From a virus (Duplodnaviria > Heunggongvirae > Uroviricota > Caudoviricetes): a stretch of 64,000 nucleotides of DNA. The DNA is taken from IMG/VR virus record IMGVR_UViG_3300010369_000001; one strand, written 5' to 3'. The stretch's first letter is position 1, and each line of letters starts with the position of its first letter. The position numbers were made by a program, and so were the translations under genes. The notes under the pieces were generated by a model that saw only the letters and a program-made list of their open reading frames with translations, searched no databases and had not been told where the DNA came from. Shown piece after piece: positions 3,344 to 32,015 of the stretch.

Positions 3344-3952
3344 TTACAATGCCCAGGTATGTTCCCAATGATGCACGCTGAATGATTCCGGCTTAATATA
3401 ATCTTCCCAGTTTTTATCTCTATCGGAAAAAGGAAAGGGATAAAAATAATCTAAAGGATATATTGTTACAGCTTTAGGAAAAAAAGGCTTAATATGTTCA
3501 CCAAATATCGAGGGAAGCGTAGCGTAGCTAAATTTTGCCCTCAAGTAATACCTGCACATAGCGTGCATTAATGGGTGCTCTTTTTCTGCCCCGATAATAC
3601 CGCAACCTACGGCAAAATCATCTTCTTTCTCGTATTCCTTACCAACAAAACATTTATTAATTAATAATTCATCCAGCGGTTTTAATATTCGCGTATCAGT
3701 ATCTAGCCAAATACCTCCAAAGTCAGCTAACACCTGGAATCTTACATAATCTGCAACAAATGCCCATTTTTTCCTTTTAGCAGCCTCTCTAATATAAGGA
3801 CACCAATTTAAATCAAAATTATCCTCATTCCATAGCTTCAGCTCATAATTTGGCAATAACCTTTCCCAAGACTCTAGGCACTCTACTCTTAGTGAGCTAG
3901 AGGTTAGCTCGCTAGCCCCAAACCAGGCATAATGTATTATTTTAGGAATCAT
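3344..3952 (-). CDS. Glycosyltransferase, GT32 / DXD sugar-binding family
   Basis: MIPKIIHYAWFG, WAFVADYVR, GGIWLDTD, HHWEHTW. Confidence 0.9.
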   Translation of the reverse strand: MIPKIIHYAWFGASELTSSSLRVECLESWERLLPNYELKLWNEDNFDLNWCPYIREAAKRKKWAFVADYVRFQVLADFGGIWLDTDTRILKPLDELLINKCFVGKEYEKEDDFAVGCGIIGAEKEHPLMHAMCRYYLRAKFSYATLPSIFGEHIKPFFPKAVTIYPLDYFYPFPFSDRDKNWEDYIKPESFSVHHWEHTWAL

Positions 3953-4848
3953 ATTAAATTATTCTCTTTGCACCATTTAGCCCAATAAGCAACGCCAGCA
4001 TATTTCACAGTAACACTTGAATGTAAAATGCTTGCGTTATTAGGTTTACCTGAAACATTTCCATATTCCCTCATTTTAGCTAGCGGCTCGTCATGTTCCT
4101 GTGTCCAGGCAAATAAATATCTTTTATCGTCTGTCTCAATTAAATTAGGATAATACAGAGAAGCTAGCTGCAATAATAATTGATCATCGTTAATCCACTG
4201 ATGTAATTGCCCATAAAACATTGGGTCTCTCATGCAATATTCAGCTACGCCCTGGCGAGGTTGATCGGCCATTAATTCTCGCTGTATTTCAATTACTCTA
4301 ATAAACAGCTCTTTTATCGCACTAATTGACCCAAATAATGCCCCGGCATTTAAATGCTTTCCTTCAGCTAAAATCCAGCTCTTATACTCAGCATTCTGAT
4401 ATGGATAAATATGATTATCTAATTCTCTATTAAATAATACTGTCCCTGGTTTATAAATATCAAGGGCTTTTTGTATTATTGTGGGAAAATTATCAGTAAA
4501 TACAATATCAGCTGAATCCAAAATAAATGTGTGAGTAATTCCTTGAGCTTGTAAGTAGCTAGCTTGCCGGAGGAATTGCTGTATTTTATGGTAGGTGAAG
4601 CCTTTCCATTGTTCTCTGAAACTGAGCCATTTAAGTGGAATTTGAAACTTCCTAGCTGATCTAATGAAAGTATCTATCTTTTGATAAGTGCTATTTTCAT
4701 AGGCTGCGACAGAAAGAATAGCTGTATTTGAGCCAAAGCCACTAGCTTCAAAGAATTGATCTGGTAGTGCATTTGTGAAGCCATTAATATTACTTACAAG
4801 AGGAGTACCATATTCCTGTATGGCCTGTGTAAATCTAGTGCTGTGCAT
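3949..4848 (-). CDS. PLOD/LH3-like glycosyltransferase domain protein
   Basis: FILDSADIVF, HLNAGALFG, DDQLLL, ILHSS pattern; paralogous to 33553-34365. Confidence 0.6.
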   Translation of the reverse strand: MHSTRFTQAIQEYGTPLVSNINGFTNALPDQFFEASGFGSNTAILSVAAYENSTYQKIDTFIRSARKFQIPLKWLSFREQWKGFTYHKIQQFLRQASYLQAQGITHTFILDSADIVFTDNFPTIIQKALDIYKPGTVLFNRELDNHIYPYQNAEYKSWILAEGKHLNAGALFGSISAIKELFIRVIEIQRELMADQPRQGVAEYCMRDPMFYGQLHQWINDDQLLLQLASLYYPNLIETDDKRYLFAWTQEHDEPLAKMREYGNVSGKPNNASILHSSVTVKYAGVAYWAKWCKENNLI

Positions 4849-5087
4849 TATTTGTTAGAGCCGCAGCTACTGCAGCTACGACGCTGCTGTATTGTGTAGC
4901 GTTGTACCTGTATTATAGTGTTTTTTAAGCTGGCGGGTTCTCGCGCGAGAATGTCGCTATGAAATACACATGATTCTTTGTTGCAATTAGTCGAGCAGTT
5001 AGCTGGTTGTCCTTTTTTACACTGTACTTGCCAGCCTCCTTCACACTTAATTGGCCGTATTCTAGCCCAAATACATGGGAGTCTCAT
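4848..5087 (-). CDS. Small Cys-rich hypothetical protein
   Basis: 79 aa, 9 Cys incl. C-terminal CSSC; strong SD (AGGAGG) upstream; TAATG coupling to next gene. Confidence 0.6.
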   Translation of the reverse strand: MRLPCIWARIRPIKCEGGWQVQCKKGQPANCSTNCNKESCVFHSDILAREPASLKNTIIQVQRYTIQQRRSCSSCGSNK

Positions 5088-5134
5088 GGCTATTGCCTCC
5101 TAAGGCTTGAGGCCTTTAGGAGGCCTCTATTAAT

Positions 5135-5218
5135 TTAAGCTACCTTCTTACTCTGTTGGTATTCTTTTATATTACGGAACAATATCGTAGGCTTTTTAAT
5201 TAAGCTACCTTCTTACTC
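5135..5218. repeat. 19-bp perfect direct repeat (ttaagctaccttcttactc) x2, 46 bp apart
   Basis: Copies at 5135-5153 and 5200-5218 in AT-rich intergenic DNA. Confidence 0.9.
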
Positions 5219-5377
5219 ATATTGTTTTATTAGCCCTCAAGGTACAGGCCTTTAATGGTTCTCTAGAACTATCGCTTTATTTATTTAATTGCCCGTTGTT
5301 TTGTATTGGGCTTTTATAGTTGCCTACAACTATCGGAAAGAACGATTAATCTTTATGTCCTTACTATTATTATATCT

Positions 5378-5405
5378 AAAAAAAAAGGAGCCTAGGCTCC
5401 TTTTT
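5378..5405 (-). terminator. Intrinsic terminator (possibly bidirectional)
   Basis: ggagc-ctag-gctcc hairpin flanked by A9 and T5 tracts. Confidence 0.85.
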
Positions 5406-5409
5406 CAAT

Positions 5410-5688
5410 TTAGCTCTTTGGTTTCTTTGGTATTGGGTAATTTTCAAAGAGTTTATTCCAAAGTTCTTTTCTTTCTTTGGCAAAGGCTGCTAGTTCGGCA
5501 TCAAGCTCTTTCAAACGAGTTTCGATTTCATTCCGCCTAGTTTTCAGTTCTTTCGATGACATTGCGTTTATTTCAGCAGCGGTCATTGGGGTCAATTTCT
5601 TTGGCCCAGGTTTAATTTCCGCGGTTGTTGCGGCGATTACGGCTGGGTCTTTGGCTGTACCTTTTTTAGGTTTTCTTGGTGTTGACAT
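5410..5688 (-). CDS. Small basic coiled-coil hypothetical protein
   Basis: 92 aa Lys-rich, own SD (GAAAGGAG), promoter motif and terminator. Confidence 0.75.
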   Translation of the reverse strand: MSTPRKPKKGTAKDPAVIAATTAEIKPGPKKLTPMTAAEINAMSSKELKTRRNEIETRLKELDAELAAFAKERKELWNKLFENYPIPKKPKS

Positions 5689-5705
5689 TTTAATCTCCTT
5701 TCATT

Positions 5706-5731
5706 GTTAAAGTATGTCAAGGTTTTATGCC
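5706..5731 (-). promoter_or_regulatory. Class-1 phage promoter-like motif
   Basis: Minus: GGCATAAAACCTTGA CATACT TTAAC. Confidence 0.55.
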
Positions 5732-5756
5732 AGCTAAACTGTAGCTTTTTAATAGT

Positions 5757-5782
5757 AAAAAAAGGAGCAGCCTAAGCTGCTC
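5757..5782 (-). terminator. Intrinsic terminator
   Basis: GAGCAGC-TTAG-GCTGCTC followed by U-tract on minus strand. Confidence 0.85.
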
Positions 5783-5786
5783 ATTA

Positions 5787-6233
5787 TTAAGTGAAGGATT
5801 TACTGCTGCGGATAATACGGCAGTCAAAGCTAGCGGCTTGTCGAGCATGCGCCAGGCGTTCTTCACACGCTTGTTCTGCTGCTTCTGCGACTGTTATGCC
5901 CTTTATTTTTTGGGCTGCCATGGCCGCTGCTTGTTGTGGGTTCTTTATGACGCTATTAACGTTATAGCGGAAGTCACAGAGGCTTTCACCGGGTTTTCCC
6001 AACTGAAGGTCTCTATCACTTTCTATGTCTCTTTTGAAGACGATGAAAAACACTGCGACGGACTTTGCGTCCATTTCCAGTGCTGTTGGTAGCAAACTTA
6101 CTATTTCAGCCACGACTGAAACAGTAAGTTTGCAGCTTGCTGTTTCCAGAACTTGCTTAATTGTAGCGAGTTCTGCTTCTTCCACTGCGTCTATAGGCGC
6201 ATACAGAAAAGTTTTCTTAGCCTTTTTAGGCAT
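5787..6233 (-). CDS. Hypothetical protein
   Basis: ORF 5787-6248; start moved to ATG 6233 behind SD GAAAGGAG. Confidence 0.7.
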   Translation of the reverse strand: MPKKAKKTFLYAPIDAVEEAELATIKQVLETASCKLTVSVVAEIVSLLPTALEMDAKSVAVFFIVFKRDIESDRDLQLGKPGESLCDFRYNVNSVIKNPQQAAAMAAQKIKGITVAEAAEQACEERLAHARQAASFDCRIIRSSKSFT

Positions 6234-6256
6234 ACTGACTCCTTTCATAAATAGGG

Positions 6257-6282
6257 GTTAAAGAATATCAAAATTATTTACC
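6257..6282 (-). promoter_or_regulatory. Class-1 phage promoter-like motif
   Basis: Minus: GGTAAATAATTTTGA TATTCT TTAAC. Confidence 0.65.
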
Positions 6283-6305
6283 TTAGAAGGGGCTACCTTT
6301 TAGCT

Positions 6306-6332
6306 AAAAAAAGGAGGGAGCTAAGCTCCCTT
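6306..6332 (-). terminator. Intrinsic terminator
   Basis: AGGGAGC-TTA-GCTCCCT plus U-tract. Confidence 0.85.
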
Positions 6333-6336
6333 GTTT

Positions 6337-6681
6337 TTAGCCATAGCCTCGGTTCCGTCTTTTACCTCCGGGCTTCTTAGGGCACGGCGGGCTAAGAGGT
6401 GGTACAGAGGGATTAAGAATAGCTTCAAGCTTATTCTTAAATCGGTAAATTTCGGAGCGGTGCGTACTCTCTAGAAATAATCCTATTTCTACTCTGAGTG
6501 ATTCCGTCTTCTTTGGCTCACCAAGTTTCTTGATGTCGTGGAGCAGGCGTAAGCTGGCGATTAACGTTTTCTTATCCTCTGCTCCAAGTTCGGGATTATC
6601 TGCGGCACGTTCAGCAATATTACTGAGATGCAGATAACAATGCGATTCTAGTTCCTTTATTCGTAAAGAATCCATCCACAT
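6337..6681 (-). CDS. Hypothetical protein with basic C-terminal tail
   Basis: 114 aa ORF bounded by promoter motif and terminator. Confidence 0.7.
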   Translation of the reverse strand: MWMDSLRIKELESHCYLHLSNIAERAADNPELGAEDKKTLIASLRLLHDIKKLGEPKKTESLRVEIGLFLESTHRSEIYRFKNKLEAILNPSVPPLSPPCPKKPGGKRRNRGYG

Positions 6682-6688
6682 AAGGGGG

Positions 6689-6717
6689 GTTAAAGTGATA
6701 CTACATAAATACTTACC
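6689..6717 (-). promoter_or_regulatory. Class-1 phage promoter-like motif
   Basis: Minus: GGTAAGTATTTATGT AGTATCACT TTAAC. Confidence 0.55.
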
Positions 6718-6741
6718 TTATTTAAATAATTCTTTTAAGCT

Positions 6742-6777
6742 AAAAAAGGGAGAGAAGGTTGTTACACCTTATCTCCC
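6742..6777 (-). terminator. Intrinsic terminator
   Basis: GGGAGA..AAGGT / ACCTT..TCTCCC hairpin plus U6; second hairpin TAGAGC-TTA-GCTCTA just upstream. Confidence 0.75.
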
Positions 6778-6808
6778 GTAGAGCTAAGCTCTAGCACGGC
6801 TGCTATTT

Positions 6809-7099
6809 TTAGGCAGCAGACTCGTATGCATCTAACACCATATCAATAGCCTCTATTTCTGCATTGAGTGCTGCTATGATCGCTTTTTGCTTTAGCGCTC
6901 TTTCCCGATAATCTTTTTTGTCTTTTTTATGGCCGTTAGGGTCTTTGCTTAGATCGCCATATAAGCTAGCGGATTTATCTAGCTCAACAATAGCTTCCAG
7001 TAATACGCTACGGGCATAGACTGTTGCACGATATGCAGACTCTACGCTGTGCGGGCCATCTTCGAGGTAGCACGCTGCTACGACTCTTTTCTTCGTCAT
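6809..7099 (-). CDS. Hypothetical coiled-coil protein
   Basis: 96 aa, SD GAAAGGA, own promoter motif and terminator. Confidence 0.7.
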   Translation of the reverse strand: MTKKRVVAACYLEDGPHSVESAYRATVYARSVLLEAIVELDKSASLYGDLSKDPNGHKKDKKDYRERALKQKAIIAALNAEIEAIDMVLDAYESAA

Positions 7100-7118
7100 A
7101 ATTTCCTTTCATAAAAGG

Positions 7119-7144
7119 GTTAAAGAATATCAACTTTATTTACC
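7119..7144 (-). promoter_or_regulatory. Class-1 phage promoter-like motif
   Basis: Minus: GGTAAATAAAGTTGA TATTCT TTAAC. Confidence 0.65.
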
Positions 7145-7167
7145 CGTAAATTAGCTACCTTTTAGCT

Positions 7168-7197
7168 AAAAAAGAGGGAGCTAAGCTCCCTCTTTTT
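7168..7197 (-). terminator. Intrinsic terminator
   Basis: GAGGGAGC-TTA-GCTCCCTC flanked by A/T tracts. Confidence 0.85.
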
Positions 7198-7486
7198 ATT
7201 TCCTTTTAGGTTTCAGCAAGTTTTGCCAATTGACTAAACTTTCGTTGTAGCAGTCAAGTGCATAATCACGAGCCACCACTAACCCTGCCCGTTGGTTATT
7301 TACGGACATTGTCATTATTTGTTCTGCCAATGCTCGGTATTCCCACCACTTTAACACTGCATCCGCTAAGGCGCAGCTTATCAAACCTTTTTTCAGGTTC
7401 CGAATCAGCTGCATATCAGCTTCTTCGGAAACGCCAAAACCTTGGGCGAGCAAAATCGCCGCCATACTAACTCTCGATACATTCAT
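7196..7486 (-). CDS. Hypothetical protein
   Basis: 96 aa ORF in co-directional run. Confidence 0.65.
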   Translation of the reverse strand: MNVSRVSMAAILLAQGFGVSEEADMQLIRNLKKGLISCALADAVLKWWEYRALAEQIMTMSVNNQRAGLVVARDYALDCYNESLVNWQNLLKPKRK

Positions 7487-7512
7487 AAGCTCTCAGTACA
7501 AATCCTTTCGTG

Positions 7513-7869
7513 TTACGAGCAGCCGCCGCAGCAACCATGCTCTACGTTAATATTCACCACTTTGAGCAACAGCGCCCTAGCAGCCGGACCAAATTGATCC
7601 ATTTCCTTCTGAATATGCTCATCACCATACTCCTCTTGCCAATCTATCGTCCAAGGGCCTTCGCCCTGGCTGATGTCCGAGGTGGTATAGTCATATGTAC
7701 AATACCCTCCAGACGTAAGACATCTTTTCCAAGAATATCTTGTTTTAGTATTATTTCTATCAACAGTATCAAAGACTAATGTGCCCGAACATAAATTTGG
7801 CCATTTACCGCTATATGATACAAATTTAATATCTTGAATATCTACGAATTTAGCTGCTTTCTTAGGCAT
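7513..7869 (-). CDS. Hypothetical phage protein with C-terminal HGCCGGC motif
   Basis: 118 aa; WPNLCSG...SGG...GPW...NVEHGCCGGCS. Confidence 0.7.
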   Translation of the reverse strand: MPKKAAKFVDIQDIKFVSYSGKWPNLCSGTLVFDTVDRNNTKTRYSWKRCLTSGGYCTYDYTTSDISQGEGPWTIDWQEEYGDEHIQKEMDQFGPAARALLLKVVNINVEHGCCGGCS

Positions 7870-7894
7870 TAGCGTGTTGCGCCGTAAGGTTTTA

Positions 7895-8893
7895 TTAAGT
7901 TACATCTTTTACTCTTTGCGTATTATTTACCAGAAGTCTCGAGGTCGTACAGCCGGCCGCTCCAACGTGACCTCCACCGTTCTTACCGATTTTAGAGCCA
8001 TCAGCTGCCTTCTCGCTCCCCCAGAACTTACAAAATTCAGCACAATCATAGTGTCCGTTTGAATATAAGCTGTAATTGTAGTCCTCTCCGTCCCAGAAAT
8101 ATAAGACGCATACAACAGCTTCTTTATAGTATCTCCCAAAAATATCGGAATTAAATCCGAAAGTATTGATAGCATAGCACCAAGTCCCATCAGGTAGCTG
8201 CGCTCTCATTAGTCCACGCTTTCTGCGACCCCAGTGCTTAGCTTTCTCTTTACGCCATAACTCCTTACCGCGAGCTAGGTATCCTTCGAGCAATTCATCA
8301 TTACCTAGTATTGCCGCCATAAAATTAGCGTCATCTATTGGGTAGCTCATTTCATACGCTGTACAATTTAAGTGCCGTGAATCCTCATCACTATGAACCC
8401 AACGATCATAGTCATCAGTAAGCATGATACCCCGAGGAGCTGGGCCGCCCATTAGCTCATCCCAGGTAATTAGGGCACCGCAACGGCCGCCAGAAATAAC
8501 TACATAGTCATCCTGAAGCCAGGGCAGATTGAGCTTGATTACATCCTCAGAAACAATGTGGTGATCGAACCAAATCAAACCACCTGGCTCAATTGCGTCA
8601 TGAACATATTGAAGAATGTCTACGGTCTCTTCTGTAAAAGAATGATCAAGAATAAATCCAAGATCAAATTTCCCAGGAGGCAGCTTGGTTTCAGCTGGCG
8701 TTTTGGGGTAGTTCATTAAAACTACAGTAATATTCAGCGTGAGCTGACTAAAATGTTCTGTTAAAGCTTTATGGCACGCAAAGAGACTAGCTTCTCCATC
8801 TAGGTCGGTATGTGTGCAAATTAAGACATTAATAGATTGTCGTCCTTGGAATTTCTTGACAAATTTAGATAAGATATTTGTTTTTGGTTTCAT
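7895..8893 (-). CDS. DHH-family phosphoesterase (DHH + DHHA1)
   Basis: HTDLDG, ILDH, FDHH, GGGHVGAAG motifs. Confidence 0.9.
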   Translation of the reverse strand: MKPKTNILSKFVKKFQGRQSINVLICTHTDLDGEASLFACHKALTEHFSQLTLNITVVLMNYPKTPAETKLPPGKFDLGFILDHSFTEETVDILQYVHDAIEPGGLIWFDHHIVSEDVIKLNLPWLQDDYVVISGGRCGALITWDELMGGPAPRGIMLTDDYDRWVHSDEDSRHLNCTAYEMSYPIDDANFMAAILGNDELLEGYLARGKELWRKEKAKHWGRRKRGLMRAQLPDGTWCYAINTFGFNSDIFGRYYKEAVVCVLYFWDGEDYNYSLYSNGHYDCAEFCKFWGSEKAADGSKIGKNGGGHVGAAGCTTSRLLVNNTQRVKDVT

Positions 8894-11352: not shown

Positions 11353-14300
11353 TTAACCGTCATGCGCGAACCAATTGGCATCTTCTTCATTTATAAAAGG
11401 ACTTATTGGCGGCCTGTGCGGCGCGTCATTTGGAAGATTAGGCAATACTGATTTAATAATCGGATTTGGCTGCCCTGGCTTTTGCTTAGTAAAATCAGTA
11501 CGCCCAACAACAGCTGGATAAAATGAAGGCCCAAACGGATCAGCTGTCAGTCCCTTCTGTGTAGCCTCTAAAATAGACTGCTTTTGATATGATCCGCCCA
11601 TTCGAGTTAACCAATCATTACTATATCTAGTATTGGCCATAGCTCGTACCATATTAGATTGAAATTTAGCTGGATTAGGATTTGCTGTAATTTTATCTAT
11701 TCCATATTTCTTTAGGTTAGCTAACACGCTGGGCCGTAGCTTAGTTCCAATCGTATAATGCAATACAGGTTCTTCTAAATATTGATTTGCAAAGTATTCA
11801 GGGCGACCAATTTGGGAATCTTCACGAGGCTCATAGTCAGCTTCATACTGGGAATATGATACTGTCTCATCTGGCAAATAATTACCGTGTTCTTCACTAA
11901 TTCTTACATGGTCTATCAATCCTTTAGCTAGCAACTCAATATTCCGTTTATTAGCTCGTGTGCCAGCTGCTCCTAAGGTATCACTAAATGCCTGTACAAA
12001 ATACCTTCGCCCTTCTCCAATGCCTTTATGGTGCACGACTTCAGCCGGATTTGGCAGCCCGTCAGAAAGAGTGTCGCCGGCTTCAATAACATCACCAACT
12101 TTTACCGTTGGCTTATTTGTATGCGGGATAATATGTTGCTGATTATTTATCGTAACTATTTGATTACCTAGCTCATCTGGCTCTATTTTTGTGACTTTCC
12201 CATCCTCTTGTGAATGAATAGCTCCCTCATAGACCGACGGAACTTGTAGCATCTGATTTAAACTTTTAAACCCTGATACCGCCTTAGCTGTCCCGCCCGC
12301 CACGCCGCCAGAATTATGTGTTATTAGGCCGTTGGCCAGTAGGTAGAGATGAGTTCGATTTGCAATCTCTAAATCATATACTTGTTGTACGCCTATGCCT
12401 TTTGAACTAATTAACGTATATTTTTTATCTTTTTCCTGTGTTTTTAAACTGATGTTATCTAAATTATTTTTTAATTTAGATCGTTTTACACCGTATAAAG
12501 GTATTTCCGTATAAAACAATTTAATATCTTTTCGTCTTAAAATATTAAAAGAATAAAGTGTTCGTTTTCGTCCCGAAGTTGTTTTATAAACTCTGGTGCT
12601 ATGAATCCCAAAACGCACCTCTAATAAATTACGTAATTCACGTACCATTTGCTCAGAAGTAGAGCCAAAGCTCAGCGCTAGCGTGTTTTTCTTAGTCACG
12701 TATATACTGCCATCCGTTATCCACAACCCTCCAATTAATGCAGCTATGGACGTTTTATCCCAGGCTTTAACTACCTCAGGAATAAATTTTTGGTGAGATT
12801 TAGCCCCGTATAAATTCAACTCTTTTAACCATTGCTTCAATGGATTGCGCTCAGATGAAGTCACTCGACCTAAGTTATCGCGTGCAGTTATTTTATTTTT
12901 TAAGCGAGAAATACGATAGTAGCCGTAATGATCTGTTAATTCAGTTATTTTTAAGTTAAACAAATACATGTATGCCTGTAATTGCGGCACTAAAGTATCG
13001 TCATGGCATGACAAGAATACGCCATTAACACTTTTAACAAAACAACCATCACCTAATAAAAGACCTAGTAATAATGCTCTAGACTCCCTGATTCCTTCAA
13101 AATCATAAGTACTTCTTACAGATAGCGCATCATAACTATCACAATTTAGGCCTATTCGTAATGATTTATTTTTTGTATAATTTTTATTGGTTTTTTTCGA
13201 AAATCTTGAAATGGTTGCAAAAAATCGATGCTGATCAGTACACGTAACTGTTATATATTCTTCTGTTTTTCCTATTTGAAAAGTATATTCACTACACTCT
13301 TGCAAACCATTATTAAATATATTACTAACCTGCGCTGGTTTAGCCACTTGATCTTTATCTACGCCTAATACATAATCCCCTATTTTAATTTCTTCGATTT
13401 TTTTAGTGGAAAAATCTGCCATACGAATCAGTGTACCTTCGGCTAAGCAGTGCTTCGAGCTCAAGGAGCCCTGTGTAATTTGCTCAGAAATGGCTTGACC
13501 GGCAGTGATACTAGGATTTTCCCCTGACACACTTAATCTATTTTTAGCTGTCTGGCCTACATCATAAGCGTATAAACTACCATCGCCGGGCCCGCCCACT
13601 ATTGGCGATCTAACAAGAATATCATTTATTTTCTTGTTTTGTAAATCTTTAAGAACTGCATCCGTGATTAATGTATTTCTTTTGTAACCCCCAATGGGGC
13701 TGGCTAAATATCTACCAACGTTACCATTATCATCTGCCGTGGCTGGCAGGCCAGTATTAGGTTTAAATCCTCCGGCCGTTGCATCTTGTGCAGAAATAAC
13801 CCCTTTATGAGCTACCTGGGAAAGCTGTTTCGCCAAAAATCCAGCATCGGCGACTTGGAGCTTCGTATCGACTACTCCTTTTCTAGCCCCAAAACTGCCC
13901 GCCCAATATTCAAATAGATTTAATCCTTCACCGTAATTATGCATTACTGGATACGGAATTGGATTATCGCTCGAGCCTGTATATAATCCATCAAACCCTA
14001 CTCCGGCAGAAACAGCGAATGGATTTCCTTTAGCGCCACTAGCCCGTAATAAAGCGAGCGGTGATTCATCCGCCTCTAATGTTTCAATAAGCTCTTTACG
14101 TAAAGCTTCTCCGCCCTCCAACATTGTCTGATTAACTAACTCGTCTTTTTGCCGTGAAGTTAAATTATCGTTCTCATAAATCTTCTTCAGCTTAGCATTA
14201 ATTCTTTCCCTGTGCTTTTTTGTTACCTCTGGCGTAGTAACTAAATCCGAAGCTAAACTATAGCCTCCTGACCGTTGCGCAAAGGTAGCGCCCAAACGAC

Positions 14301-24569: not shown

Positions 24570-27500
24570 TCATCGCCGCAGGATCTCAACTTCATCGGAC
24601 AACTGAACTTCGCCTCTTACCCATGCTTGCTTAAAATCAGCCATTGTTGCGAAGACCTTTGGGCGGCTTTTCTTTTTTCTAGATCTAGTAGCTTCATAAA
24701 GCCCAGCTATGTAGTCCTCTTGTGGCGTAAAGTTAGGAGACCCATCAGTCATATTTAGTAAATTTTGTGAAGGCAGCATCAATCTTATTGCATCTTGAAC
24801 TGCGTCATCGCTGATAGGTAATTGAAAATTCATAGCATCGCCGTCGAGGTCAGCACCAAAGCCTCCCATGGTATATTGATTCATTTGGATGCTATTTCCT
24901 TTAACTAGCTTAGGCCAAAAAGCCATAATTCCATATTGGTGCAAAATAGGAGATCGATCAAGAACTACTGGACGCTCTTGCACTGACTGTAAAAGTGCAG
25001 CTTTAGCTCGCTTGTCTTTATTATCGTACATGTCCTGAGCTGTCGTAAGCGGAACACCGCTTTGAGCTAGCTTCCTGATAATTACTGGTTTATAGATTTC
25101 ATAAGCTGAATTAATGGGTAGCCCAACTTCATCTAAATCAAGATTGGGCGACATGGTAATTACGTTACGGGAAACAACGTCAACGCCTCCACCCAATAAA
25201 TTACGTTGTACCATTCCATATTTACTGCTCCCCTCCCCAAAGACATGTCGCAATAACCCTGTTACCCGTTTTTGCTGTAGCTTGGGATGGGACGGATCCA
25301 TTAATCCAGTTATTTGTTTAAAATAGTTGTAAGACTGCAAATACTCTTCACCTGCGTCACCAATTTGACCTTCTAGCTCCTTAACTGTTTTATCGTGATC
25401 AATCATTTGCTTATACAAATAATTAACATCGGCAATTAAAGCAGTTTTTGTCCCGCCCATCTCAGACACGGGCCGGAACTTAGGCGGTATAACTGGAATA
25501 CGATCCAGCATCCAATCAGCTGGCGTTAAATCATTATCTTTAGCTGCCTTTAAGAACTGCAGCTTCTTTACTGCTTCATCTCTTTTTGTGCCTCTTGTAC
25601 TGGCTATAGTTTCACGAGCACGAGACATTTCATGGTCAACATTTAGCTTGCCTAAAGCTTTTCTAATAGCTTGTGGCCCAGTTCCAAACTCATTTAATTG
25701 TGCCCGACCAGCTATGACATCATTTAATTTAGCCTGTGTCAAACCTAGCATTCTTCTAGCTGGCTCTTCCATTACCGGATTAAGCATAGGCTGAGCTGGT
25801 TTAATAAAGCCCCATTTCTCGCCATACTCACCAAAAATAGCTGGATCAAATAATCCGCCTTTAATACCCTTTTTATCGCCTTCCCACTTAATTGTTTCAG
25901 AAGAAGTGACTTCCCTATTACCAACTAATTGCTTGACATCATTATTAGTAAGGGCCAAGATTTTCAGCTTGTTAGCTGTTGGCGTTACATTAATTCCCGA
26001 TCCTTGAAGGTGAGCCATAAACTTATGATACATTTGAGGCATTTCTGGCTCAGGCGGCTGATAACCTCTCATAAAAGCTGCCCAATAGTCATCATTTTTC
26101 TGCCCACGAATTCGCCTCGCATCAGCTAACATGTTATAAGCTCCATGACTTATAAGGGCGTTTGTGTGCATAAGAGCTACTCTTTTGGCCCCTTCACTGC
26201 CTCCGCTTGCAGGTTGTTCATCAGCTGTGTAATGACCAAAAGAACGGTCACTTGTCTTTCCCTCAGCTGAATGATGGAGTTTTTGAACGTAGCTGTAGCC
26301 CCACCCAATACCCTTTCCGTCCGTCCCGGTTATTAATTTACCTGTTTCAGGATCTAATACTGGATCCCGTGGATTAATTCCATGTTCTTTTGCCAAGCGC
26401 AAAACATATGCCGCCGTGTCAGGCTCCTTGGGATCAAATGATTCAATCTTAATTGGCTTACCAGTTTTCTTAGCAATTCGGCCTAATAAATGCTCATGCA
26501 GCATCGAATAATTTACTCTACCGATATTTCCTATTGGAGAATATACAATTTCAGCTGGGCCATCAGGAGTTTGTGGCATCTGATCATCAGGGACTATCTC
26601 AGCAATAACGCCTTTTGCCCCATATCTGTTCGCGAGCTTATCTGCCAAACGTGTTGGCGACAAAGAACTTACGACTACATTAACACCATTCTTATCATTA
26701 AACACCTCAACCACCTGACCTGGGTCTTCATGATCCCATTCCAGCGCACTATTAGTTAATGACTGTGCGCCTTTACGATGGATGCGATCAACCGGTTTTG
26801 TATTTACATCAGCTTTAAGCACCATTGGGTCGCCTTGATTTAAGACTGTCCCAATACGTACAACACCGTCATCGTCGATAGTGTCTAGCTGAGCTGCATC
26901 ATAGACTGATGGAAATGCGCCCATAAAGGTTTTCTTACCCTGCTTAATATTCTCAGCCCAATCTACTTTATGCTGATAGGCATGCTGAGACTTCATACGA
27001 TCAGCCATCGATTTGCTGATAATAATTGCATCCATAGTATTACTGCCTCTCCACGGCATTACAACCGCCCTAGCATTAAACCCCTGTGCCATTGCGCCAG
27101 TATCATCCGTAAAATTAGATTTAGCTAACAGCTGGCCTTTTGTAATCTGCTGACCGGGTTGAACTACTGGAGTTTGAGTAGTATAAGTATTGTGCACAAC
27201 TAACCCACCGCCTACACAAAAACAATGCGAATTAGCTACCGTCAAATCATATACATCAGTAACGAACTCTGTTAGTTTTATTTCTGTGATTAAATCCCAT
27301 TCAATATCCGAAGCTGCCCACAATCCAAAATTACCAGAAATATCTTTTAGTAATTTTTTAGGTATTGCGCCTTTTGTACCGTACCTGTATAATTCTCGCC
27401 ATTTTTTTAATTCCCAAAATTTCTTAGGTCTTAAATTTTTTAATAATTTAATTGAAGCTTTACTAACTGGTACTTTTTCAGTACAGCCCGTTATTTGTCG

Positions 27501-30386
27501 TTTATTTTTTTGACAATTTAAAAGATCATCTAATAATTTTTGACGATCTTCATAAATAAACCATGTTTTTAATTTTTTAATACTTTCCGTTCTAACACGA
27601 AAACCATATGCATCCGCCCATTTATCATTTATTAATTTTCTAGGAGAAAATAAAATAGTCGTTGAAACGTTTAAAGAAGCTAAAATATCAACTAAATCAT
27701 CACGTAAACGTTCGGAAGTAACAAACACACACAATTGAATAGCGCCGTTTATGTCCGTATGTAAGCAAGCATCGCCGCTAAAAAATCCAGCAATAAGTCC
27801 TTGCCTAAAAGCTTTAGACTCACCTAACAGTTCATCAGCTATATATTTAGTACCAGAATATCTTCCACAATAATTAAATAAATCGCAAGCCAATGCCGCA
27901 TTTGCTATTCTTACTCCACCTTTTATCGGCAATGCCTTATTTTCTGCCGACCAATCTTGTAAATAAGTCAGGACTTGTTGCTTACGAGACTGACCCTCAA
28001 CAGCAAAATTAACCTCACTATAAATATTGCCATCATTAGCTTTAAATTTTTCCAATTTTTTACGACCGGCATCTCCCTTTTTCGGAAATTTTGATTGTGC
28101 TTGATGTACTGAAGTATGTGCAACAGCCCGTTTTAAATAGCCTTCAGCAAGATAAAGCCCAGTAACCGCTCCTCGAACATATTCTGCCCTGTAATCGTAT
28201 TCCCTTTTTTCACTAAGCGCTAATGATGCAATAGGTATTCGTGTTTTACCGACGATACATTCCGATGGAAATAACGGTACAAGCGCACCAATATCATTTA
28301 AAGTTACTAAACTATGATCTTCAGTTACCTGCACTTTTCGTCCAGATTTTGTAACTATTTCAAGTATTTGTTTATCTTTATTAGTTACTTTTTGTACCGC
28401 TGTTACGGCTTCCCAACCGGTATTATAATTATTTTGTTGAATAGTTCGTGTCTTATCTCCGGGTTGCCAGCTATAGTCTTTTATTTTTCCTCGCCAAATT
28501 TTTCCAGTTTCCCGTAATATGTAAATCTTAGTGTCACCTACAACACACTTTCTATTGCTTGCTGCGTTCTTGACAAAAGGAAATTTCTTTTGTCCTTCTG
28601 GAGTGTCAATAATAATTTCTCGATCAGTTACTTTTCTAACCATGCCCTCTACATCAGAATTAACAGTAGAAAAGAGACCTATTTTGTCTTCATATGACTC
28701 ATCTTTAGCTCCTGGCATACGTGATTGAACTAAAGGGGATTCGCCGCCTTCTAAAGGCAGTGCTTGAGTAATCATACGAGCTGCCATCGATACTCGCTGT
28801 CCTTTTACATTCCCCAGCATGGGAATTAAATTAGAAAGATTGTTGTAGCCTGACTGCGCATTGGGAAAAATATAATCAATTTGATCTTTTTTAATTCCCA
28901 TTCTGGGTTGCCTATCTCTGTCGAAGGCAGAAATACGATCATCCCCTTTGGCCCACTCTGATTGAAGCGTGACCGTAGCTTCCATCAAATCTACTGGATT
29001 TTTATATTCTTCCTTACCTGTTCGGGCATTTATTACTGGAATATATAAATTACCGTCGGATCCTTTTTTAGCTGACGAGCTAATATAAAGGTCAACTCCT
29101 GCCCTTAAAGATTCTGGTGTTTGTAGCGGATCAATAAACCCATATTGACTATTGTTTACCTCGCGAGCTGAGTCTGGGATAGCGTTTGAGTCATTGATTG
29201 CTCCCGCACCCATTCTTGTCACGCTAAATAACTTAGAATACTGCTCATATGGGTTTACTTCCTCAGCTGGGCTAGCTAACCCACTTTGAGTAATAACCGC
29301 CCCAATTTGTTTCGATAATGCACCAGTTGGTATTTTATCTAAATTGGGATTATTATTTGACAAGAATGTCAGTTTATTTAATAGTTGCCTTCTTACTCTA
29401 CCGTCATCTAATCTAAGTCGCTCAGCAAATAAATCTTCTGGCCCGTGAAAGGATTGAAAAGCCATATTATCTCGACTATCACTTTCAACTTCTCCACGAG
29501 CTAATTGAACTAATTTTTTAGATGCACTTAACACAGCGTCCTTATCTAAATGATCCTTTTCTGTCCCAAGTGTTGATCGAGTTACTTCCTTAGCAAATTT
29601 AATCGCAGCAGCTTGCTCTTGAATACGCTCACGCATTTTAGCGTCACTGTCTTTATCTCCTGGTTGCTGATATTTCTTCCTTACAAAACGATCATACAGC
29701 TTACGAGTATTTACTTCTCTTGCGTGTGCTTTATTTGTTTCAAATAATTTATCACCCCAAGCTTCCTTTAACTCATCGTCGGACGCGCCCATTGCATGCA
29801 AAAAAGTATACAACGGCACATTATTTTTACTGACTTCCATATCAAATCTACCGGTAGTTGGGTCAAACTTATAAGAATGTGTCGGCCCTTCATGGTCAGC
29901 TGCATTTACATTAGCCACCAGCTCATTATTCTCCTTTTGTCTAACATAAATTCCATGCTTAAGTCTTTGCTGATTACGGATGTAATAGAGATTACCAGAG
30001 TCCATGACCCCACCATTGTCCAAAATATACGGGACATTAGCTAAAGTCTTGCGCTGTTTCTGTAGAAGCCTTCCTGTTTGAGTGTCTATTAAATTCCAAG
30101 TACCTCTAAGCCTGCGATTGAGTGACCGTTGCTGGATTCTAGCTTGGTGAACATCGTGCGCATTGTATGCAGGATTGTCAGCCCAATCTACATCAGAAAT
30201 GGACAGCGTGTAGCGATTATTAGACACAGGCTGCAAATTACTTGCGGCTTGATGTACGGAATCAAATACCGCACTTCTAAGAGCTGCAGGATCGTCAAAG
30301 GCTCTCATCCGAACAGCTGGTTTTTCGTCCTCTTTCTTTTGCTGCGGAGGCCGTAAAGTATTCTGAAAAAGCGGCGGTGTAGTCAT
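24570..30386 (-). CDS. rpoB: Phage multi-subunit RNA polymerase, beta fused to N-terminal half of beta', intein-containing
   Basis: Beta motifs GFIDPLQTPES..AG, RVSMAARMITQALPL, DKLANRYGAKGVI, KLHHSAEGK..RS, GAKRVALM; beta' motifs GLFDPAIFG, WMLDRIPVIPPKFRP, RNLLGGGVDVVSRNVI, VVLDRSPILH, GADLDGDAM. Confidence 0.93.
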   Translation of the reverse strand: MTTPPLFQNTLRPPQQKKEDEKPAVRMRAFDDPAALRSAVFDSVHQAASNLQPVSNNRYTLSISDVDWADNPAYNAHDVHQARIQQRSLNRRLRGTWNLIDTQTGRLLQKQRKTLANVPYILDNGGVMDSGNLYYIRNQQRLKHGIYVRQKENNELVANVNAADHEGPTHSYKFDPTTGRFDMEVSKNNVPLYTFLHAMGASDDELKEAWGDKLFETNKAHAREVNTRKLYDRFVRKKYQQPGDKDSDAKMRERIQEQAAAIKFAKEVTRSTLGTEKDHLDKDAVLSASKKLVQLARGEVESDSRDNMAFQSFHGPEDLFAERLRLDDGRVRRQLLNKLTFLSNNNPNLDKIPTGALSKQIGAVITQSGLASPAEEVNPYEQYSKLFSVTRMGAGAINDSNAIPDSAREVNNSQYGFIDPLQTPESLRAGVDLYISSSAKKGSDGNLYIPVINARTGKEEYKNPVDLMEATVTLQSEWAKGDDRISAFDRDRQPRMGIKKDQIDYIFPNAQSGYNNLSNLIPMLGNVKGQRVSMAARMITQALPLEGGESPLVQSRMPGAKDESYEDKIGLFSTVNSDVEGMVRKVTDREIIIDTPEGQKKFPFVKNAASNRKCVVGDTKIYILRETGKIWRGKIKDYSWQPGDKTRTIQQNNYNTGWEAVTAVQKVTNKDKQILEIVTKSGRKVQVTEDHSLVTLNDIGALVPLFPSECIVGKTRIPIASLALSEKREYDYRAEYVRGAVTGLYLAEGYLKRAVAHTSVHQAQSKFPKKGDAGRKKLEKFKANDGNIYSEVNFAVEGQSRKQQVLTYLQDWSAENKALPIKGGVRIANAALACDLFNYCGRYSGTKYIADELLGESKAFRQGLIAGFFSGDACLHTDINGAIQLCVFVTSERLRDDLVDILASLNVSTTILFSPRKLINDKWADAYGFRVRTESIKKLKTWFIYEDRQKLLDDLLNCQKNKRQITGCTEKVPVSKASIKLLKNLRPKKFWELKKWRELYRYGTKGAIPKKLLKDISGNFGLWAASDIEWDLITEIKLTEFVTDVYDLTVANSHCFCVGGGLVVHNTYTTQTPVVQPGQQITKGQLLAKSNFTDDTGAMAQGFNARAVVMPWRGSNTMDAIIISKSMADRMKSQHAYQHKVDWAENIKQGKKTFMGAFPSVYDAAQLDTIDDDGVVRIGTVLNQGDPMVLKADVNTKPVDRIHRKGAQSLTNSALEWDHEDPGQVVEVFNDKNGVNVVVSSLSPTRLADKLANRYGAKGVIAEIVPDDQMPQTPDGPAEIVYSPIGNIGRVNYSMLHEHLLGRIAKKTGKPIKIESFDPKEPDTAAYVLRLAKEHGINPRDPVLDPETGKLITGTDGKGIGWGYSYVQKLHHSAEGKTSDRSFGHYTADEQPASGGSEGAKRVALMHTNALISHGAYNMLADARRIRGQKNDDYWAAFMRGYQPPEPEMPQMYHKFMAHLQGSGINVTPTANKLKILALTNNDVKQLVGNREVTSSETIKWEGDKKGIKGGLFDPAIFGEYGEKWGFIKPAQPMLNPVMEEPARRMLGLTQAKLNDVIAGRAQLNEFGTGPQAIRKALGKLNVDHEMSRARETIASTRGTKRDEAVKKLQFLKAAKDNDLTPADWMLDRIPVIPPKFRPVSEMGGTKTALIADVNYLYKQMIDHDKTVKELEGQIGDAGEEYLQSYNYFKQITGLMDPSHPKLQQKRVTGLLRHVFGEGSSKYGMVQRNLLGGGVDVVSRNVITMSPNLDLDEVGLPINSAYEIYKPVIIRKLAQSGVPLTTAQDMYDNKDKRAKAALLQSVQERPVVLDRSPILHQYGIMAFWPKLVKGNSIQMNQYTMGGFGADLDGDAMNFQLPISDDAVQDAIRLMLPSQNLLNMTDGSPNFTPQEDYIAGLYEATRSRKKKSRPKVFATMADFKQAWVRGEVQLSDEVEILRR
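27189..28547 (-). mobile_element. Intein with LAGLIDADG homing endonuclease (453 aa)
   Basis: Starts CVVGDT (codon at 28547), ends GGGLVVHN then Thr+1; VTGLYLAEGY and LIAGFFSGDAC blocks; AT-rich. Confidence 0.93.
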
Positions 30387-30416
30387 GCTTTAATTATACT
30401 TGAGCATGTCGAAGCT

Positions 30417-30485
30417 AAAAAAAAGAGCGGACAGCGATTATAGGCTCCTTCCTGACCAGGAAAGGCTACCTATAACGCTTTGCTC
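30417..30485 (-). terminator. Long interrupted hairpin with U8 tract (terminator)
   Basis: gagc/gctc, agcg/cgct, ttatagg/cctataa and ttcctg/caggaa nested pairs next to an A8 run. Confidence 0.75.
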
Positions 30486-30489
30486 ACAA

Positions 30490-30880
30490 AATACCTCCTG
30501 TACCAATAGAAGTATATGCATTCGGGAAGTGAGCGCACCCCTACATTGCTCATCTCGCTGAGCAATTTGCTAGTCATCGCCAGCGGCGTCATCCTGTCTC
30601 CTGAGCGGGCGATAACTCACGTTGCCCCAGGACAAGCACATTTTTTTACGCTACTAACGTTACGAGTATATGGTAATGTGCGCCGCAGCTCCACCATACA
30701 TTGTCGTCAAGGATTCTTTATCATTGCAGCTTGTACCTTGAATAGGGCTGCAACGTGTGGTTCTCCTTATAGGATTATGTCACTGAACAGTTCACAGAGG
30801 CCACAGCTCTCCCTGTCTCCGAGTTTCCCCGGACTAACCGCGTTGTCTTTGCGGCGGACGTTCCTTTTTGTTGCATGAAA
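30490..30880 (-). ncRNA. Candidate large structured non-coding RNA of unassigned family
   Basis: GC-richer gap with no minus-strand ORF; multiple helices whose G-U wobbles and GAAA tetraloop work only on the minus strand. Confidence 0.6.
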
Positions 30881-30881
30881 A

Positions 30882-30920
30882 TATTTTATAAAAATCTTCA
30901 TTATTTATAAATATCTTCAC
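30882..30920. repeat. Tandem 19-bp near-perfect repeat (20-bp period)
   Basis: tattttataaaaatcttca / tattttataaatatcttca directly upstream of the candidate ncRNA. Confidence 0.8.
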
Positions 30921-30962
30921 TATTTAATAACACAAATAACGCTGTTTTTTAATTCTTTTTAG

Positions 30963-32015
30963 CTACCTTGTAAGTCCACTATTTACAGCTTTTACAATAG
31001 GCTCAAATGAATCATAAACAACGGGAATACTTTCAGAAAGAACAACGCCTAGTCTTCCATACCTGCCTGCCGTAGAAAGAAATCTCGATGCAATAGCTTT
31101 CGTCATCCAGGCGCCATCAGCTGGCGAACCCAGAATGTCAGCTGCTGTATAGCGACGGCCGTGACTGTTTAGCCAGTAGACATATTCTTCGCCGCCCACA
31201 GTGACCCAACTATTAATGCTGGTTGCATGATTCCAGCTGCCCGATAGCGTAGCTACTCTCACGCCATTTCTATCCGTTGAACTGCCGCCCACTTTTATTG
31301 TATTCCCTAAGAAAATACCAAACCCGGCCTTAGCTGCCTCGAAAACCCTATCAACAAGATTATCCGTAGGCATCCAGCAAAGACCTGATTGGTAATTAAG
31401 AGCGACATTTGCATGTGTCCTTGTGTCCGGCTGACGAGTTACATTATCGCCAGCTACTTCAATTGGGAAATTACCGTGTCGATTAACAGCCGCACCAATT
31501 GCAGCTATGCTCTGGCCGCCCCGCATACTGCCGCCTTTAGAAATAACCCAAGTCACTAATGGATTATACGGGTTATACAGCATTGGCTGCCCTAAAGCAA
31601 TATCAGTAAGTGTTGAAGCATGCTTTGCGAACGCAGCTGCAAATCCGGCGCAGCTGGGCACAGACTGTTGGCTAAATGCAAATTGGTTACCTCGCCGGAA
31701 GTTAGATGGAAGAGCTGGAATAATATCCCAAGGAAACCAGCTAAACCCTGAGTCTACAATACGTTGCAAGGCTACCTGCCGAGACCGCATGTAACGCTCG
31801 AAGGTACTATCCCAAGCTATGATTGGCATATCCCCACCACGCTCCCAGCCAGAAATACTGACAGCTGCTGCGGACATTGCCTCTAATAACTCTTCATCAT
31901 AATCATCCGCTGGCAAACAGCCATCTTCCGCAGCATTAGCAATATTTGCCTCGCGCCTCAGCCTAGCTCGTTCGGACATCCGAACATCTGAAATTCTAAA
32001 TCTGCTTCTAAACAT
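30963..32015 (-). CDS. Papain-like (C1) cysteine peptidase
   Basis: QQSVPSCAGFA (Gln/Cys), WNHATSI (His), YWLNSHG (Asn). Confidence 0.8.
   Translation of the reverse strand: MFRSRFRISDVRMSERARLRREANIANAAEDGCLPADDYDEELLEAMSAAAVSISGWERGGDMPIIAWDSTFERYMRSRQVALQRIVDSGFSWFPWDIIPALPSNFRRGNQFAFSQQSVPSCAGFAAAFAKHASTLTDIALGQPMLYNPYNPLVTWVISKGGSMRGGQSIAAIGAAVNRHGNFPIEVAGDNVTRQPDTRTHANVALNYQSGLCWMPTDNLVDRVFEAAKAGFGIFLGNTIKVGGSSTDRNGVRVATLSGSWNHATSINSWVTVGGEEYVYWLNSHGRRYTAADILGSPADGAWMTKAIASRFLSTAGRYGRLGVVLSESIPVVYDSFEPIVKAVNSGLTR

Follow-up and report, generated by a model that had tools for sequence, protein, structure and literature searches.

The DNA analysed here, a stretch of 64,000 nt referred to as the window, comes from a jumbo phage of a termite-gut metagenome and is identical in five DNA runs from three studies. 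Contigs from four DNA runs equal the window sequence at 29400-32000, and no population variation was found in that interval. All long ORFs of the window lie on the minus strand. One of them encodes an RNA polymerase (RNAP) that belongs to a large family known only from metagenomes; its nearest relatives are 61-73% identical over the first 620 residues, and identity to the RNAPs of cultured phages is only about 27%. Upstream of it lies a gene for a 350-aa protein, with its stop at 30963. The gap between the two genes, 30387-30962 (576 nt), is the largest stretch of the window without a minus-strand ORF of at least 70 aa. The features of the gap and its downstream border are listed below (L numbers are loci of related phages; SD, Shine-Dalgarno).

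24570-30386, minus strand: ORF of a fused beta/N-terminal beta' multisubunit RNAP with an intein (Pfam)
30384-30398, minus strand: TATAAT (30393-30398), 6 nt, and the ATG of the RNAP gene (30384-30386), an arrangement common to L006 and L007
30417-30485, minus strand: predicted intrinsic terminator, an imperfect stem of about 23 bp (30425-30485) followed by U8 (30417-30424); -28.1 kcal/mol, z -2.9
30470-30601, minus strand: ORF40, 40 codons (30470-30592), its ATG directly after GGAGACAGG (30593-30601); codon score -0.125
30516-30878, plus strand: antisense ORF of 120 codons (ORF120), judged spurious; codon score -0.151
30668-30754, minus strand: hairpins GUUGCAGC/GCUGCAAU (30723-30754) and GUAUGGUG/UACCAUAU (30668-30699) in folding predictions; local window z -2.8
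30767-30901, minus strand: ORF44, 44 aa; codon score -0.109, below the coding 5th percentile; no SD
30818-30855, minus strand: adjacent hairpins GCCGC/GCGGU (30837-30855) and UCCGGG-GAAA-CUCGGA (30818-30833), in both the minimum free energy (MFE) and the centroid structure
30858-30867, minus strand: SD-like AAAGGAACGT with no ATG, GTG or TTG at the usual spacing
30873-30897, minus strand: weak AU hairpin near the transcript 5' end; MFE -4.5 kcal/mol, not above shuffles
30885-30926, no strand assigned: 19-nt tandem duplication, 2.2 copies, in the initially transcribed region; not in relatives (alignment A2)
30918-30952, minus strand: promoter-class motif, TTAAAAAAC (30952-30944), N7 and TTTGTGTTATTAAATAGTG (30936-30918), aligned with L006 (twice), L007 and L009

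A preliminary description of this locus had presented it as a GC-richer non-coding gap that gives rise to a structured RNA. The first part of that statement is borne out. The body of the gap (30420-30880) has 49% GC, at the 98th percentile of equal-size windows (mean 40.5%, sd 3.7%). By codon log-likelihood, all six frames of the gap score at most 0.04, as against 0.23 +/- 0.07 for real genes, and the period-3 signal of 1.2 amounts to none when set against a coding median of 3.05. A recoded gene was rejected, since the minus frames hold a mixture of TAA, TAG and TGA stops, and so was a pseudogene with a residual frame, since neither a codon nor a period-3 trace is present. The gap is non-coding.

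The plus-strand ORF120, whose translation would have made the gap a gene transcribed against the rest of the window, fits this result. It is stop-free over about 124 codons, an event with a chance of about 0.2% per frame (a rough estimate from base composition), and was predicted by the gene caller of one assembly. Its codon usage is nevertheless that of non-coding DNA (-0.15 versus 0.23), and its product contains no Lys, no Asp and two Glu, with Leu, Ser and Arg making up 37%. ORF120 forms a singleton cluster. A phmmer search of 1.84 billion representatives gave no convincing homologue; besides itself, it returned two weak matches to long proteins, over a short segment of about 25 residues (E 2.8e-5 and 6.3e-4). 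Searches of phages by tblastn gave no match, and degenerate six-pattern scans with ORF120 as the probe confirmed no relative in viral, metagenome and genome collections, which lack the contig of the window itself. Neither an SD nor a promoter was seen for it, and the region upstream is the minus-strand terminator. That ORF120 is a real gene is thus very improbable.

The upstream end of the gap has counterparts in other phages of the clade. Synteny was followed at the loci of homologues of the 350-aa gene (L001-L005) and of the four closest RNAP relatives (L006-L010). Over its first 40 nt the gap matches L009 and L006, and its promoter-class motif, present once in the window, matches the core of the clade motif (TTAAAAAAC-N6-7-TTTTTGTGGTAAAGAATAGTG) at 15 of 19 bases. 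The class occurs at no fewer than nine related-phage loci, namely L006 (2340-2377 and 3010-3047), L007 (745-785), L009 (2485-2522), L015, L020, L026, L032, L033 and L035. In the relatives a stereotyped leader follows the motif: a hairpin near the 5' end, then a stretch rich in A, then an SD, for example AAAGGAGA, and after 5-7 nt the ATG of a small gene (general form AAAGGAG-N5-7-ATG). All other true members of the class precede genes with an SD and an ATG. In the window the transcript is predicted to start at about 30909-30912. The weak AU hairpin occupies the site of the 5'-proximal hairpin in the mRNA leaders of relatives, and in alignment A2 AAAGGAACGT lines up with GAAAGGAACGTATC-ATG of L007 and with AAAGGAGA-N-ATG of L006 and L009. 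A cassette of the clade type would have an SD 40-60 nt downstream of the motif, followed by an ATG and an ORF; the window has the SD-like AAAGGAACGT but neither start codon nor ORF. The AT-rich tandem repeat that had been noticed upstream of the body is present at 30885-30926.

What lies between the promoter and the RNAP gene differs from phage to phage. In L007/L008, the nearest relative by synteny, the promoter motif lies at 767-785, behind a homologue of the 350-aa gene that ends at 741. The SD-ATG of a 123-aa gene comes next, and the slot as a whole holds four small genes and one reverse gene over 3.2 kb before the RNAP gene at 4001. The slot of the window ends in the same way but with only the 576-nt gap between, and L006, L009 and L010 carry still other contents. 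These differences identify the position as a variable cargo slot. Three observations concern other parts of these loci. At L007 (1-741) a longer product of 669 aa, with a faint HNH match, contains the homologue of the 350-aa protein as its C-terminal part; this may reflect a fusion or an endonuclease insertion. L006 has a non-coding stretch at 3374-3567 with a tRNA T-arm-like GGGTTCGATTCCC; it may be a tRNA fragment, and ARAGORN and Rfam are negative. Two genes downstream of a distant homologue of the 350-aa gene, 1.1 kb without called genes is found at L003 (9289-10423) and L004 (2803-3937).

No relative shares the body of the gap. By nhmmer, blastn and tblastx its only similarity to these loci is the promoter, with no resemblance to the cargos of relatives in DNA or protein. 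The gap and the surrounding 7.4 kb gave no blastn match among 50,697 phage records; an exact-pattern scan of viral contigs found no relative; promoter-pattern scans found 30 further loci, none of them with the body; and the window holds no paralogue of the gap sequence. The collection of homologues proposed in the preliminary description was undertaken, and no homologue of the body was found in any collection searched. At L009 (2520-2822, identical in L021), about 300 nt without a long ORF follow a promoter of the same class (z -5.4), with two perfect 10-bp hairpins, a terminator and two 24-codon ORFs with an SD. Homology of the window body to this unit was rejected, the best local alignment being equalled by 16% of shuffles.

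Promoters of this class normally drive genes for small proteins, and the transcript may be asked to encode one or more micro-proteins, ORF40 and/or ORF44. The geometry of ORF40 can be read from the sequence: an AGGAGA SD stands 5 nt before its ATG, behind a leader of about 320 nt, and its stop falls within the 5' arm of the terminator, where the last gene of a transcript often ends. Its codon score of -0.125 and that of ORF44 are nonetheless below the 5th percentile (0.065) of real 120-nt coding chunks. No homologue was found for either, ORF44 has no SD, and the translation of ORF40 contains no hydrophobic transmembrane stretch. An mRNA for micro-proteins is therefore an improbable reading of the gap.

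At the other end of the gap, the long terminator hairpin of the preliminary description is there, with its stem at 30425-30485 and U8, although a simple terminator scan did not call it. With a conserved-class promoter and a terminator of its own, both predicted, the region does look like a stand-alone minus-strand unit, as had been suggested. No terminator separates the end of the 350-aa gene (30963) from the promoter, and the region is thus probably the 3' end of the upstream operon as well. The terminator ends 30 nt before the ATG of the RNAP gene. In between lies a TATAAT. Its distance to the RNAP ATG is 6-7 nt in three members of the clade (window, 30384-30398; L006, 3985-4003; L007, 3985-4003) and 31 nt in L009. 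The window and L006 have a terminator T-run before the TATAAT, and share the layout of T-run, AGC(T/C)T, TATAAT and ATG. The retention of TATAAT directly before the ATG in the window, L006 and L007 marks it as the predicted -10 element of the RNAP gene itself, from which a leaderless mRNA would probably be made.

The closeness of the terminator to the RNAP gene, and the long structured region upstream of that gene, would also suit a cis-acting leader or attenuator, in which conditional read-through of the terminator sets the expression of the polymerase. Several observations speak against it: the TATAAT kept in three phages points to a promoter belonging to the RNAP gene, no anti-terminator alternative was identified, relatives carry ordinary genes in the slot, and no riboswitch or leader family of Rfam matches. 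We regard control of this kind as distinctly unlikely.

The known RNA families offer no identification of the gap. The search of Rfam with cmscan that had been proposed gave no match at the gathering score. At E <= 10, with slices of 901 and 506 nt and both strands, no RNase P or other ribozyme model was returned; the sole matches were psRNA6 (8.7 bits, in the AT-rich repeat) and Vax2os1_2, a vertebrate lncRNA model (9.5 bits), with thresholds of 60 and 55 respectively, and both are judged meaningless. Models of riboswitches, group I and group II introns, GOLLD, ROOL, HEARO, CsrB/Rsm and 6S RNA are not near threshold. ARAGORN and Rfam find no tRNA or tmRNA at the gap, in line with the earlier failure to see tmRNA ends; the only two tRNAs of the window lie elsewhere. 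No description of such an RNA was found in the literature.

The preliminary description had left room for a highly diverged ribozyme and described two segments, AAAGGAACGT and GGAGACAGG, as loose echoes of RNase P. A size of about 400-500 nt would suit an RNase P RNA. The string GGAACGUCC is loosely similar to CR-I, and a GAAA hairpin followed by ACAGGGAGAGC is present. The complementary P4 strand, already reported as missing, is indeed missing when judged against shuffles: for the CR-I-like strand (30849-30868) the best duplex, -17.5 kcal/mol with a partner at about 30688, is equalled by 31% of shuffles, and the partner, at some 270 nt from the 3' end, is misplaced for P4. Both echoes are elements of the kind found at ribosome binding sites. 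The first, CR-I-like one is the equivalent of the ribosome binding site of relatives, and the second reads GGAGACAGG-ATG-ACGCC, that is, the SD and start of ORF40. Together with the absence of any ribozyme model at E <= 10, these results leave RNase P or another ribozyme an exceedingly remote reading.

Folding was examined on its own terms. All hairpins listed in the preliminary description are present (30818-30833, 30723-30754, 30668-30699 and a further one at 30546-30564), and so is the bias of structure to the minus strand, with a z of -1.65 for the 400-nt core versus -0.08 on the plus strand. The fold of the core is within the spread of controls, and the global fold is ill-defined. Among 39 coding control windows of the same strand, the mean z is -1.1 (sd 1.6) and a third are at or below the value of the core. 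The MFE and centroid structures differ, and long-range pairs shift with the choice of ends. When 12 local windows of 120 nt were folded, only 30801-30920 (-3.8), 30641-30760 (-2.8) and the terminator (-3.1) went beyond the 5th percentile of controls (-2.5). Two of the 11 non-terminator windows are thus beyond it, and these two beat 95-99% of controls. PMC8250186 holds that the fold of a single sequence is no evidence of functional structure.

Other parts of the window also fold well. Of the 39 control windows the strongest is 5800-6199 (minus strand, 400 nt; z = -7.3), and the coding control windows 12200-12599 and 28200-28599 fold unusually well (z -4.4 and -3.1). The region 5000-7900 is an array of small-gene cassettes with repeated terminator hairpins and a T-run-AGCT-A-run junction; a second leader is conserved there, with CTTTAACCC(C) at its end, immediately ahead of the ATG.

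Short motifs are unevenly represented in the unit. GGAG occurs seven times, where local composition predicts 2.3 and the window as a whole averages 1.8 per 486 nt. Several copies stand ahead of very short ORFs (5, 10 and 40 codons), as would be expected of the ribosome binding sites of relic small genes. CAGGA occurs four times, versus 0.5 expected. GGA itself, with 11 copies versus 9.1 expected, is not enriched; a CsrB-like sponge was rejected on that count and for want of a CsrB/Rsm match. The 9-mer CCTGTCTCC does occur at both 30593 and 30812, as had been noted, but its repetition is at chance level, with a direct repeat of at least 9 nt in 26% of shuffles.

It is well supported that the gap forms a non-coding unit, from promoter to terminator, in an early slot of variable content, and that it is neither RNase P nor a member of any known family. 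No result identifies it as a conserved structured RNA or as a ribozyme. Our preferred reading, to which we give a probability of roughly 45%, is that it is an ORF-less, probably eroded or truncated, early-gene cassette whose terminator insulates the RNAP gene. The 350-aa gene and the RNAP gene would flank a hypervariable slot for early genes, with the gap in its cargo position. Transcription from the clade-type promoter would yield an RNA of about 495 nt, from roughly 30912 to 30417, with a leader of mRNA type, comprising the weak 5' hairpin, an A-rich stretch and the SD-like AAAGGAACGT. In place of the start codon and small genes of relatives, the window has about 430 nt of GC-richer sequence that lacks a coding signal in every frame. 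The working parts would be the promoter and the terminator, the latter stopping transcription both from this promoter and from the upstream operon, and the RNAP would be expressed from its own promoter. Several lines of evidence point to an eroded cassette: the mRNA-type leader with its orphan ribosome binding site, the excess of SD-like GGAG (7 versus about 2) before very short ORFs, the ordinary global folding combined with lack of conservation, and the synteny with L007/L008, together with the equivalent position of the SD and the terminator and TATAAT shared with L006.

The sequence does not argue in one direction only. In the compact genome of a phage, one would not expect 0.5 kb of useless sequence to have its promoter and terminator intact. 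In GC content the body exceeds 98% of the window, the wrong direction of drift for decay in a genome of 40% GC, and a GC excess is a classic signature of structured RNA or of foreign DNA. The asymmetry of folding favours the transcribed strand, and two sub-windows fold well. No residual similarity of the body to an early protein of any relative was found, so erosion is inferred rather than shown.

The GC excess, the asymmetric folding, the two well-folding sub-regions and the compactness of phage genomes keep in contention, as a tentative alternative, a lineage-specific, trans-acting functional ncRNA of about 0.5 kb, carried as cargo of the early slot and acting on a host or phage factor as decoy, sponge or regulator. 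No intergenic region of the window is larger or richer in GC than the gap, whose conserved promoter is intact and whose terminator is strong; its folding is biased to the minus strand with local windows at z -3.8 and -2.8, and CAGGA is in excess. The L009/L021 unit behind the same promoter is hairpin-rich without a long ORF as well, but is unrelated in sequence. No homologue of the body, and hence no covariation, came from the collections searched, the global fold is neither exceptional nor well defined, and the unit begins with a leader of mRNA type that includes a ribosome binding site. In its stricter form, that the transcript of about 495 nt is a functional, lineage-restricted ncRNA filling an early accessory slot in which relatives carry small proteins, the proposal appears slightly more doubtful still. 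One possible form of it is a decoy or sponge, rich in SD-like (C)AGGA(G) motifs, that would titrate ribosomes, a defence component or an RNA-binding factor of the host early in infection.

If the gap is an eroded cassette, it is an ordinary by-product of cassette turnover in the early region of a phage. Its value is then mainly cautionary, in that helices picked by eye, a repeated 9-mer and purine-rich strings resembling ribosome binding sites can mimic a ribozyme. The analysis has yielded three by-products: a promoter and leader class conserved across a clade of uncultured termite-gut jumbo phages, a variable cargo slot upstream of the polymerase gene of that clade, and a fused beta/beta' RNAP that is probably expressed from a leaderless mRNA. 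Were the RNA functional, it would place an RNA instead of a protein in an early accessory slot of a jumbo phage, and would merit follow-up.

Several known systems resemble the gap in part. Bacterial RNase P RNA (RF00010, RF00011) is of similar length, and the gap has a purine-rich GGAA-N-GUCC string and a GNRA hairpin; it differs in having neither a covariance-model match nor a P4 helix, and its CR-I-like string is about 45 nt from the 5' end, at the position of a ribosome binding site. GOLLD and ROOL (large phage-associated ncRNAs), HEARO, OLE and raiA are families of Rfam. The gap is like them as a large ncRNA candidate in a phage genome, and unlike them in that none of their models is returned at E <= 10 and no tRNA neighbourhood is found at the gap. 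Type I toxin mRNAs such as hok are long, folded mRNAs of about 400 nt with a small ORF. The predicted transcript recalls them in its size, about 0.5 kb, and in having a small ORF with an SD towards the 3' end; ORF40, however, has no transmembrane stretch and no family match, and no antisense RNA gene was identified.

In the approach of PMC11109978, structured ncRNA candidates are sought as long GC-rich intergenic regions of AT-rich genomes. The gap, as the longest and most GC-rich intergenic region of the window, resembles the candidates described there, but their acceptance requires homologues and covariation, of which the gap has none. The remaining comparison is with the moron-like promoter-gene-terminator cassettes that large phages carry in hypervariable early or accessory regions. 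The unit in the window differs from these in having no ORF after the ribosome binding site, its cargo being non-coding by every test run. It is like them in having its own promoter, an SD-type leader, an intrinsic terminator and a place in a variable slot, and nothing in the gap departs from known phage genome organisation.
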